Assembly (NCBI GenBank): GCA_020720345.1
Contig: DYOT01000001.1
Coordinates: 1-31,391, forward strand
Direction: 5' to 3'
From: Candidatus Caenarcanum sp.
Lineage (GTDB): Bacteria > Cyanobacteriota > Vampirovibrionia > Gastranaerophilales > UBA9971
Length of the DNA: 31,391 bases
Made by a program: the position numbers and the translations under genes. The notes under the pieces are model-generated. The model made no database searches. It was not told where the DNA came from and saw only the letters and a program-made list of their open reading frames with translations. Shown here in pieces: positions 17,872-21,510 of this stretch (position 1 is its first letter; each line of letters begins with the position of its first letter).

Positions 17872-19380
17872 ATGAATTTATTGTTTGATATAGCCAATGT
17901 ACTGCTTCCCGAGGCTTTTTTGTCAATTTTAATCATTCTATGCATAATACTTACATTTGTTTTAAAGGAAGAAAACCAGAATTTAGTTTTTGCAGCGGCT
18001 TTAACAGGACTTATTCTAACTTTGTTCTCTTTCATATTTATACCTTTTTCGCAGGAAAATCAGGCACTTTACGGAAATTTTGTTTCAAATTCGTTTACTA
18101 TTATATTTAGAATCCTTATTCTAATCGGAACAATACTAACAGTAATGCTTTCCAGAAGATATACAAGTAATTTTAGCAACAGTATAGGGGAATTTTATAC
18201 ATTAATTCTCATTGCAACGCTTGGTGGAATGCTTTTAACAGGTGCAAATGATCTTATTATGCTTTTTGTTGCAATTGAAACCTTGAGTATTTCAAGCTTT
18301 GCGCTTTGCGGCTACACAAAACTTGATAAATTAAGCAATGAAGCCGCGTTAAAATACCTTATAATAGGTGCTGCCTCGACTGCTGTGATGCTTTACGGGT
18401 TTTCGTTTTTATATGGAATAACGGGGCAAACGAATATAGCTGATATAATAAAAGTTTTGCCTAATTATCAACCAAGTATAGTACTAATACTAAGTTTTCT
18501 GTTTATTCTTGCTGGTTTTGGCTACAAACTTTCTGCTGTGCCTTTTCATGTTTGGGCACCAGACGTTTATCAGGGAGCTCCAATTCCCGTTGCAGCCTAT
18601 TTGTCTGTTGTTTCAAAAATTGCAGGATTTGCGGCATTAACAAGATTCATGACTTTAATTTACAGCGATATTTCCATCTTCACTGTTGCAATTGCAGTAA
18701 TTGCGGTATTAACAATGACAGTAGGAAACCTTATGGCGCTTGGTCAAAAAAACATAAGACGACTGATGGCATACAGTTCAATTGCACAGGCGGGATATGT
18801 TTTATTAGGTCTGTCAGTCTTAACTATAGAAGGTGTTTCCGGTATAATATTTTATTTAATAGCATATTTATTTATGAATTTCGGTACATGGGCAGCTATT
18901 CAAATCTTTGCAACAGAAACCGGAATGGATTCTATAGACGACTATAATGGACTCGCCTACAAAAATAAATATTTTTCTCTTTGTCTTGCGATTTGCCTGC
19001 TCTCTCTGGCAGGAATTCCCTTTACGTCGGGATTTTTTGCAAAGTTTTATTTATTCAAAGCGATTGCTTTTGCAGGACTTAATTATATGCCTCTATTAAT
19101 AATTGCCCTTGTTAACACTGTTTTGGGGGTATTTTACTATGTAAAAGTAATAAGGGCAATGTACGTAAGAACAAACAATGGAACTGCGAAACAAAACGGC
19201 AAATTAAAAATTTCCTTATCTTTACAAAGTGTACTTGTCGTAACCGTTCTGACAACATTATTAATCGGGGTTTTTGCAGGTTCATTTATTGATATTTCAA
19301 AATTTGCGGCAAAAAGCATAACAATCAATAAAAAATCCCCTGTTGAAAGCTTTTCCGATATTTCATCGTTTATAAGATAA
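17872..19380 (+). CDS. ndhB: NDH antiporter-like subunit NdhB/NuoN
   Basis: EAALKY, GYKLSAVPFHVWAPDVYQGAP, RLMAYSSIAQAGY, LSLAGIPFTSGFFAK. Confidence 0.97.
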   Translation: MNLLFDIANVLLPEAFLSILIILCIILTFVLKEENQNLVFAAALTGLILTLFSFIFIPFSQENQALYGNFVSNSFTIIFRILILIGTILTVMLSRRYTSNFSNSIGEFYTLILIATLGGMLLTGANDLIMLFVAIETLSISSFALCGYTKLDKLSNEAALKYLIIGAASTAVMLYGFSFLYGITGQTNIADIIKVLPNYQPSIVLILSFLFILAGFGYKLSAVPFHVWAPDVYQGAPIPVAAYLSVVSKIAGFAALTRFMTLIYSDISIFTVAIAVIAVLTMTVGNLMALGQKNIRRLMAYSSIAQAGYVLLGLSVLTIEGVSGIIFYLIAYLFMNFGTWAAIQIFATETGMDSIDDYNGLAYKNKYFSLCLAICLLSLAGIPFTSGFFAKFYLFKAIAFAGLNYMPLLIIALVNTVLGVFYYVKVIRAMYVRTNNGTAKQNGKLKISLSLQSVLVVTVLTTLLIGVFAGSFIDISKFAAKSITINKKSPVESFSDISSFIR

Positions 19381-19471
19381 GTTATCTGTATAAAAAAAAA
19401 TTAAAAATGGACAAATAGGTTTATTCGTTGTCTAATTTTAATATCTAAAATTAGCCGAGGAGGATAAAGCA

Positions 19472-20575
19472 ATTAAAGTTTCATTTCCACATATGGGTAC
19501 CATATATATAGTAATAGCCTCATTGATACGCTCTCTTGGAGGGGAAGTAATAATTCCTCCCAAAACAAGCAAGAAAACCCTTTCTCTAGGTACAAAATAC
19601 AGCCCTGAAGCAATATGTTTACCTTACAAGCTGCTTCTCGGCAATTACATAGAAGCCATCGAACACGGAGCAGAAGCAGTAATAATGATTAACAGCCCCG
19701 GAATTTGCAGGCTTGGCGAATACAGCAAAACAATCAAAAACGCTCTTGACGACCTGGGTTACAAGATAAAATATATTGACCTTGACATTTACAAAGGTAA
19801 ATTCGTAGAAATGTTGGGCTGCTTAAAAACAGTAACAGGAAATTCCAATCTTTTTGTTCTTGCACAAGGTTTAGGACTTGCCTTTAACAAAATTTTTGTG
19901 ATTGATAATCTGGACGGAGTCCTATCATACTACAGGGCAAGGGAATATGAATTTGGAGAAGCTGAAAGAGCTTACAATACAGCTTTAAAATGGATAGATG
20001 AAGCTTCTACAGGAAAAGAACTCAAAGAAGCAAACTTGCTCGCCATTCAGGAAATTAAAAAAACACCAATAAATGATGAAAAAGACGTTTTAAAAGTTGA
20101 CCTTACCGGTGAAATTTTTATGGTACTTGACCCTTTTTCAAATCAGGGTCTTGAAAAAGAACTAGGCAGACTCGGAGTTGAAACAAAGAGAAGCATGAGC
20201 CTTAGCGGCTGGTTAAAAACAGCGATAATTCCGGGATTTATGAGAAAAGAAGAAACTCATCTTGAAAGAGCCTATAAATATGCAAAGCCCTATCTTTTAA
20301 GAGATATAGGCGGAGATGCCATAGAATCCGTGAGCGATGTTGCTTATGCGACAAGCAAGGGAGTTGACGGAATCATACACTTGAGCCCGTTTACCTGCAT
20401 GCCGGAAATTATATCCCAAAATATTTTCCCGAAGATGAGAGAAGATGGATCAATCCCCATTCTTGCCCTTGTACTCGATGAACAGACAGGAAAAGCCGGC
20501 TTTGTAACAAGACTTGAAGCATTTGTAGACCTTATGAGAAGAAGAAAATACCAGCAAGCCGCAGGTTTGGCATAG
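19472..20575 (+). CDS. 2-hydroxyacyl-CoA dehydratase / CoA-protein-activase family FeS protein; probable ATT start at 19472 (first ATG at 19493)
   Basis: (I)KVSFPHMG N-terminus, YSPEAICLPYK, GICRLGEY, LTGEIFM, DGIIHLSPFTCMPE, DEQTGKAGFVTRLEAFVDL. Strong SD GAGGAGG at 19457-19463. Confidence 0.85.
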   Translation: MKVSFPHMGTIYIVIASLIRSLGGEVIIPPKTSKKTLSLGTKYSPEAICLPYKLLLGNYIEAIEHGAEAVIMINSPGICRLGEYSKTIKNALDDLGYKIKYIDLDIYKGKFVEMLGCLKTVTGNSNLFVLAQGLGLAFNKIFVIDNLDGVLSYYRAREYEFGEAERAYNTALKWIDEASTGKELKEANLLAIQEIKKTPINDEKDVLKVDLTGEIFMVLDPFSNQGLEKELGRLGVETKRSMSLSGWLKTAIIPGFMRKEETHLERAYKYAKPYLLRDIGGDAIESVSDVAYATSKGVDGIIHLSPFTCMPEIISQNIFPKMREDGSIPILALVLDEQTGKAGFVTRLEAFVDLMRRRKYQQAAGLA

Positions 20576-20583
20576 AATCTTAA

Positions 20584-21510
20584 ATGGAATTTATACATAA
20601 AACTGTACTTTTGAATGAAGCTGTAGAAGGCTTGTTTTGTAGCGCAGGCAAGCTTTATGTTGATGCAACAGCAGGAGGAGGCGGGCATTCCTACGAAATC
20701 GCAAAACGAATCGGGGAGCAAAGCAGTCTTCTGGCATTTGACGTTGATGAAGACGCAATCAAAGCTGCTTCTGAAAAGCTAAAAGATTTCACTAATACAA
20801 AAATTATTAACGCAAGCTATACGCAAATACCGGAAATTTTAAAACAGGAAGGCATAGAAAAAATTACCGGAGGCATTTTATTTGATCTTGGTGCTTCTTT
20901 TCACCAGCTTACTTCTGCGGAAAGAGGATTCAGCTTTACAAAAGACGCATTTCTTGATATGCGATTTAACAAAGAGCAAGATTTAACGGCATTCAAAGTA
21001 ATTAATAAATTTTCAGAAACCGAACTTGCAAATATTTTTTATAAATACGGAGAGGAAAAATTTTCGCGTCGAATTGCAAAAAAAATTGTCGAAAAAAGAA
21101 AAGAAAAGCCTGTTAAAACAACAACTGAGCTTGCCGATATAATAAAATCAATAGTCCCTTTTCAAAAAAAAGGAATTAATCCTGCAACAAGAGTGTTTCA
21201 GGCACTAAGAATCTTTGTAAACAAAGAACTTGAGAATATTGAAACAACACTGCAACAAATTATTCCTTTATTGGACAAAGGTGCTAGAATAGTTGTAATA
21301 AGTTTTCACTCGCTGGAAGACAGACTTGTAAAAAACATTTTCAGAGAATACAGCCTTGACTGTAAATGTCCTAAAGAACAGTTAATTTGTTCATGTAGGC
21401 CGGGGCTGCTAAAAATCATCACCAAAAAGCCTGTGGTAGCTTCTTCAGAAGAGTTGAAAGACAATCCTTCAGCAAGGAGCGCGAAAATGCGCATAGCTGA
21501 GAAAAGATAA
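20584..21510 (+). CDS. rsmH: 16S rRNA m4C1402 methyltransferase RsmH (MraW)
   Basis: HKTVLLNE, VDATAGGGGHS, FDLGAS, DMRF, PATRVFQALRIFVN, ISFHSLEDRLVK, NPSARSAKMR. Confidence 0.97.
   Translation: MEFIHKTVLLNEAVEGLFCSAGKLYVDATAGGGGHSYEIAKRIGEQSSLLAFDVDEDAIKAASEKLKDFTNTKIINASYTQIPEILKQEGIEKITGGILFDLGASFHQLTSAERGFSFTKDAFLDMRFNKEQDLTAFKVINKFSETELANIFYKYGEEKFSRRIAKKIVEKRKEKPVKTTTELADIIKSIVPFQKKGINPATRVFQALRIFVNKELENIETTLQQIIPLLDKGARIVVISFHSLEDRLVKNIFREYSLDCKCPKEQLICSCRPGLLKIITKKPVVASSEELKDNPSARSAKMRIAEKR

Follow-up and report, generated by a model that had tools for sequence, protein, structure and literature searches.

Where does translation begin in a gene that carries a strong Shine-Dalgarno (SD) sequence 8 nt before an ATT codon and 29 nt before the nearest in-frame ATG? 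The question is raised by a DUF2229 gene of an uncultured Gastranaerophilales (Melainabacteria), Candidatus Caenarcanum sp., known from a metagenome-assembled genome (MAG), a placement that agrees with the names carried by homologs; the window analysed here is a 31,391-nt stretch of one of its contigs (DYOT01000001.1, assembly GCA_020720345.1). Both a mechanical open reading frame list and the corresponding entry of a public protein collection (P0002) start the gene at the ATG at 19493, giving a product of 360 residues. The first-pass annotation of this DNA had proposed initiation at the ATT at 19472, and the positions on which that proposal was built (the SD sequence, the 8-nt spacer, the ATT, the upstream TAA and the ATG at a distance of 29 nt) were all found to be correct. 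The features of the region are as follows.

19408-19435, forward strand: conserved upstream element TGGACA-N15-TTGTCTAA (family consensus T[AG]GACA-N15-TGTCTAA)
19439-19441, forward strand: TAA, in frame, which shuts the frame upstream
19457-19463, forward strand: extended SD sequence GAGGAGG, 8 nt 5' of the ATT and 29 nt 5' of the ATG at 19493
19464-19471, forward strand: spacer between SD and ATT, ATAAAGCA, 8 nt
19472-19474, forward strand: ATT, proposed on a comparative basis as the initiation codon (AUU, read as fMet)
19472-20575, forward strand: full coding sequence, 367 codons plus TAG; DUF2229 (PF09989), with a predicted HadBC/BCR/DCCP fold
19475-19492, forward strand: codons 2-7 (K-V-S-F-P-H), covering beta-strand 1 and the invariant His7, missing from a product that starts at 19493
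19493-19495, forward strand: internal ATG (Met8), the gene-caller start (360-aa product P0002), with no SD sequence in range
20584-21510, forward strand: rsmH (16S rRNA m4C1402 methyltransferase; TIGR00006, 364 bits)

Between the TAA and the ATG the frame reads TAT CTA AAA TTA GCC GAG GAG GAT AAA GCA ATT AAA GTT TCA TTT CCA CAT, a stretch with no ATG, GTG or TTG, and in which the ATT at 19472 is the sole codon that differs from ATG by a single mismatch. The arrangement of SD sequence and ATT exceeds what would be expected by chance, given the counts of these motifs over both strands of the 1.63-Mb genome (78 for GAGGAGG, 1156 for GGAGG), which correspond to a probability of about 2e-4 (7-mer) or 4e-3 (5-mer) of finding one within the 10-nt window before a given codon, and given its recurrence in independent assemblies, described below. 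Counting, over the whole genome, the GAGGAGG motifs that precede a long reading frame was uninformative by itself, since most copies of the motif are intragenic. The spacing customary in this organism was determined from 477 genes with an unambiguous ATG start, with GGAG or GAGG as the SD core. Such a core lies upstream of 132 of the 477 genes (~28%), at a spacing of about 4-13 nt with a mode of 7, and in only 1 of the 132 does the distance exceed 16 nt; a spacer of 8 nt therefore suits the ATT at 19472, while 29 nt is unsuited to the ATG at 19493.

The nature of the encoded protein bears on which of the two N-termini is the more plausible. The PF09989 model (DUF2229, CoA enzyme activase uncharacterised domain) matches residues 9-70 with 46.0 bits, against a gathering threshold of 29.4, and on the model side the match runs from position 11 to 73, so that positions 1-10 of the model fall to the residues that precede Met8. 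The HGD-D model (PF06050) scored 20.3 bits, short of its cut-off of 28.4, and over the C-terminal 60 residues only, so the protein is treated here as a structural relative and not as a member of HGD-D; NCBIfam models gave no match to the 367-residue product. Sequence searches of the PDB returned marginal matches only (E values of 0.14-0.85), and a fold search was therefore needed. An AlphaFold2 model, calculated from an alignment of 50 sequences with identities down to 40% (alignment A1), has a mean pLDDT of 87.9, and residues 2-4 form its first beta-strand, with pLDDT of ~89. Foldseek comparison of this model with 3o3m, 7yzm/6eno and 8s02 gave E values of 7e-10 to 1e-5; VIA gave Z values of 14-15.5 for 292-299 aligned residues at an rmsd of about 4.4, and alignments to the solved relatives start at model residue 1. 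The model thus predicts that the protein shares, over its full length, the two-domain alpha/beta fold of the HgdAB/HadBC - BCR - DCCP radical enzyme superfamily. Within the 50-sequence alignment H7, C49, C79 and C309 are invariant, and the genome encodes a BcrAD_BadFG ATPase on contig C158, not adjacent to the DUF2229 gene. The same two-domain fold is found over ~295 residues in HadC (3o3m, the beta subunit of (R)-2-hydroxyisocaproyl-CoA dehydratase), in the double-cubane cluster protein DCCP (6eno/7yzm) and in the class I benzoyl-CoA reductase proteins BzdO/MbdO (8s02, 9gai); unlike these, to which its identity is only 10-18%, the DUF2229 protein is encoded by a solitary gene, with neither a partner subunit nor an activase adjoining it.

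If the ATG at 19493 were internal, the seven codons that precede it should behave as protein-coding sequence. Orthologs were found in all 41 of the related genomes searched, with alignments that begin at query residue 1-3. In addition to the invariant H7, residues K2, V3, F5 and P6 are conserved in at least 90% of the 50 aligned sequences, a class that Met8 does not reach. In other homologs Met8 is replaced by Val, Ile, Ala, Leu, Cys or Thr, encoded by codons that are not start codons (GTA, GTT, GTC or GCC, for instance), which argues that it is a residue of the fold and not a start. Among loci that carry the ATT, codons 2-7 differ from those of the window by 12 synonymous changes and a single non-synonymous one. 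These comparisons indicate that the seven codons 5' of the ATG are coding and under protein-level selection.

The codon at the proposed start was also followed through the relatives. Five lineages, with 13 distinct sequences among them, have an ATT with an SD sequence 7-9 nt upstream, the codon being ATT in 13/13; in all five lineages the SD sequence tracks the ATT and not the ATG. For seven of the 13 (the window itself, L001, with L112, L013, L014/L019/L020 and L017) the frame holds an upstream stop and offers no canonical alternative, and these ATT-only loci come from independent assemblies that belong to several GTDB families. The others (L002-L004, L113, L116 and L016) keep the same SD and ATT, and the upstream 'canonical' codon is inconstant. 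This is best seen in the closest clade, with 86-88% identity, where GGAGGG, 7 nt and ATT are constant, and where the upstream codon is ATG in L002, L003 and L116, TTG-CTG in L113, CCG in L112 and a more distant ATG in L004. That codon overlaps the SD sequence or sits 5' of it, so the SD sequence of the closest clade cannot serve it. Where the position is clearly internal, its codon is ATA in 60 cases, ATT in 18, TTA in 12 and ATC in 5, in addition to CCA, CTA, CTT and AAA; ATT thus makes up 18 of the 83 Ile codons at internal positions. At this position, then, no canonical codon preserves the N-terminus, the SD sequence lies at a functional spacing, and codon and SD sequence are both conserved in independent assemblies.

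Distant homologs and paralogs (40-56% identity) start at exactly this position in 37 of 37 cases, with ATG in 28, TTG in 7 and GTG in 2, their N-terminus reading MK[VI]xFPHMG and a GGAG or GAGG lying 4-12 nt upstream in 25 of the 37; this is therefore where proteins of the family ancestrally began. The earlier statement that homologs begin with MKxxFPHMG thus holds for paralogs and distant homologs and fails for most direct orthologs. Most of the latter use an upstream ATG or TTG, the ATG lying 5-10 codons 5', which adds a Lys-rich extension of 5-10 residues. In the gut Gastranaerophilaceae orthologs (L025-L111, L121-L145) this extension, of the type M-x-K-E-x-K-K-K, looks as though the A-rich leader had come to be translated; the former start position has become an internal Ile, Leu or Pro codon, and the SD sequence is absent. 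It is of note that the matches to some metagenomic paralogs (L146-L152, L154 and L158, 52-56% identity) exceed the query by ~340 nt in length, and that straight-through translation of L146 meets in-frame stops, which suggests inserts or frame changes in some paralog copies.

Comparison, predicted structure and SD spacing together thus give strong support to the ATT at 19472 as start codon, as the first-pass annotation had proposed. From these comparisons we infer, with considerable confidence, that the DUF2229 gene is translated in vivo from AUU 19472 and that the ATG at 19493 is internal. The extended SD sequence GAGGAGG, 8 nt upstream, would position the 30S subunit at the AUU, which the initiator tRNA would read as fMet to yield a protein of 367 residues that starts with M-K-V-S-F-P-H-M-G, with AUG 19493 as an internal Met. 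In the ancestor of the Gastranaerophilales orthologs the start codon would have turned to ATT with the SD sequence kept; several lineages, including this genome, would have retained both, and other lineages would have captured an ATG or TTG from the A-rich leader, 4-15 codons further 5', acquiring the Lys-rich extension and losing the SD sequence of the old site. In a FastTree phylogeny of 129 sequences, calculated without the first 8 residues and with the paralogs as root, the forms with SD and ATT (L016, L017, L013, L014 and the clade of the window) lie on basal branches of the ortholog clade, and the upstream-start forms make up the large gut family (98 rows) and three smaller groups. This direction of change is the most economical reading of a topology with a basal polytomy, and the number of upstream-ATG captures, perhaps 3-4, is uncertain because of that polytomy.

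Against initiation at the ATT must be weighed the annotated start itself. Translation from ATG 19493, with the upstream SD sequence and open frame either incidental or a standby site, would make use of the most efficient start codon, in a genome where most genes lack an SD sequence, and would agree with the 360-residue call in the database. This reading is nonetheless improbable, since its product would lack the invariant His7 and beta-strand 1, the seven codons that it leaves untranslated are those found to be under protein-level selection, the SD sequence would stand 29 nt away where the observed range is about 4-16 nt, homologs do not keep a codon capable of initiation at Met8, and in five lineages it is the ATT that the SD sequence accompanies. 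SD-independent initiation at AUG 19493 may nevertheless contribute as a minor route, given that only ~28% of the clear genes bear an SD core. A related reading, in which both codons are used and the full-length protein is accompanied by a truncated and probably inactive isoform, draws on the weakness of AUU, which could let some 30S subunits slide or bind downstream, and on the fact that the AUG is kept in all loci of the ATT type. It is quite improbable, however, as Met8 is also kept in 104 of the 107 orthologs with an upstream ATG, so that its conservation is explained by the fold; moreover, AUG 19493 has no SD sequence and the local hairpin that contains it is not statistically significant.

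A different type of explanation holds that the start codon has been lost, in a decaying or silent pseudogene, or that an ATG was wrongly assembled as ATT. A single genome, taken alone, excludes neither, yet the idea is scarcely credible in the light of the relatives: the frame of 367 codons is intact, its identity to other ATT-type loci is 72-88%, the changes at its 5' end are mostly synonymous, as under purifying selection, and an identical ATT is seen in all 13 distinct sequences, which come from separate MAGs and metagenomes. This recurrence rules out a local sequencing error, and with it an assembly error for ATG. Initiation at AUU 19472 is consequently the reading that is followed here.

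The leader of the gene contains a further conserved feature. Of 14 ATT-type loci, 12 carry the pattern T[AG]GACA-N15-TGTCTAA at a distance of 64-110 nt 5' of the start position. Three upstream-ATG loci from the same family share it at that distance, none of the 37 paralogs does, and the element at 19408-19435 is its single occurrence in this genome. Since it is common to ATT-type and some upstream-ATG loci, their 5' regions are homologous and not convergent. The element may be either a promoter-like pair (-35 TGGACA, 17 nt, TCTAAT) or a perfect 6-nt inverted repeat that could serve as an operator. A scan for consensus sigma-70 promoters and terminators yielded one weak match, inside the coding sequence, and no terminator; it missed the element because the -10 hexamer lacks an A at position 2. 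An Rfam scan of 19300-19650 gave no meaningful RNA element, and the predicted fold of the leader and start region was no better than that of shuffled sequences (z = 0.24). A hairpin with AUAUGG and CCAUAU arms around a GUA loop can be drawn at 19488-19508, taking in AUG 19493, in a fold that does not rise above shuffled controls.

The genomic neighbourhood evokes the question of whether the unusual start is linked to cell wall and division genes. Genes of the nuoL/M/N type lie upstream of the DUF2229 gene, and downstream are found rsmH, a 157-residue reading frame without a Pfam match, a penicillin-binding protein (PBP) gene and murE. The ATG of rsmH lies 8 nt past the DUF2229 stop (TAG aatcttaa ATG, 20573-20586) and has no SD sequence, and rsmH may be translationally coupled to the DUF2229 reading frame. 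In L006-L008, three further loci of family f1, the gap to rsmH is likewise short (5-11 nt), suggesting that the two genes are translationally coupled in this family. Among ~190 loci, rsmH is downstream in 9, all of them in family f1 (L001, L005-L010) and its close metagenomic kin, a family in which every genome but this one has an upstream ATG; elsewhere among the ATT-type lineages rsmH is absent from the locus, and unrelated genes stand on either side, frequently in convergent or divergent orientation. Conserved linkage of the DUF2229 gene to rsmH, ftsL, ftsI and murE, as expected of a component of the dcw cluster, was not found across relatives in these ~190 loci. The earlier idea of a tie to the coupled dcw genes is therefore not supported, and dcw linkage as the reason for the ATT is rejected by synteny, which indicates instead that the ATT is older than, and independent of, the adjacency of rsmH.

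The suggestion that AUU throttles the gene and makes it responsive to IF3 fares better. It is a reasonable inference that AUU keeps DUF2229 expression low and IF3-sensitive, because AUU is weak in reporters, with 1-2% of AUG output in E. coli and, together with an extended SD sequence of the kind present here, ~10% in S. aureus (bioRxiv 10.1101/2025.06.19.660503). The infC gene of this same genome (G000, contig C78; positions refer to L031, 1351-1560) lies downstream of a tRNA-Leu(CAG) gene at 1351-1434, and no ATG, GTG or TTG is found between that tRNA and the conserved IF3 core; AGGAG at 1459-1463 is followed, after 7 nt, by an ATC at 1471. This infC likely starts at ATC 1471, a non-canonical AUH start, and the lack of a canonical codon suggests that AUH initiation is used by this organism. 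The m4C1402 modification that RsmH introduces lies in the ribosomal P site, and in E. coli lacking RsmH initiation at AUU is 1.8-fold higher (PMC2831307). One could conceive that, with rsmH coupled to an AUU-initiated gene, ribosomes short of this methylation would start more often at AUU and thereby raise RsmH output, in a translational feedback loop sensing P-site methylation in this lineage, for which the autoregulation of infC by IF3 would be the analogue; such a loop is a long shot.

The immediate consequence concerns annotation, as gene callers regularly cut the protein short, an error that will spread into family models and structure predictions. A start at Met8 (MGT...) is called in 34 of the 120 nearest protein clusters of the public collection (P0004-P0094). 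All four Met8-called homologs that were compared at the DNA level are ATT-only loci, so that as called these products lack the invariant His7 and beta-strand 1; the remaining 30 clusters probably carry the same truncated call. A class-wide genome search with P0061 gave no close relative at the threshold used. The loci also form a natural series for escape from a weak start, from SD and AUU kept, through an upstream ATG that overlaps the SD sequence, to full capture with a Lys-rich extension. The value of the case, which is modest, lies mainly in annotation and in the evolutionary turnover of start codons.

Comparison with known systems places the locus within an established pattern. Like infC and pcnB of E. 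coli, the DUF2229 gene would combine an AUU start with an SD sequence, and poor initiation and discrimination by IF3 would be expected; unlike them, it encodes a radical-enzyme-like protein of an FeS family with no evident autoregulatory logic, and only some branches of the ortholog clade keep its AUU, which elsewhere is bypassed by capture of an upstream ATG. In S. aureus, Ribo-Ret work on cvfC1 (AUU) and ccpN (AUA) found that the conserved AUU and AUA starts all have extended SD sequences (bioRxiv 10.1101/2025.06.19.660503). Those starts were mapped experimentally, whereas that of the DUF2229 gene is drawn from comparison only, and the phylum here is Cyanobacteriota/Melainabacteria, in which SD sequences are sparingly used (28% of genes). 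The AUU proposed here is a further example of a known phenomenon (infC, pcnB and cvfC1-type) that does not overturn current understanding, and it adds a well-supported, phylogenetically conserved AUU start beyond the classic infC and pcnB, in a phylum whose initiation signals have been little studied. With cvfC1 and ccpN it shares the same pairing of a non-canonical start with a strong, well-spaced SD sequence, codon and SD both being conserved in relatives.
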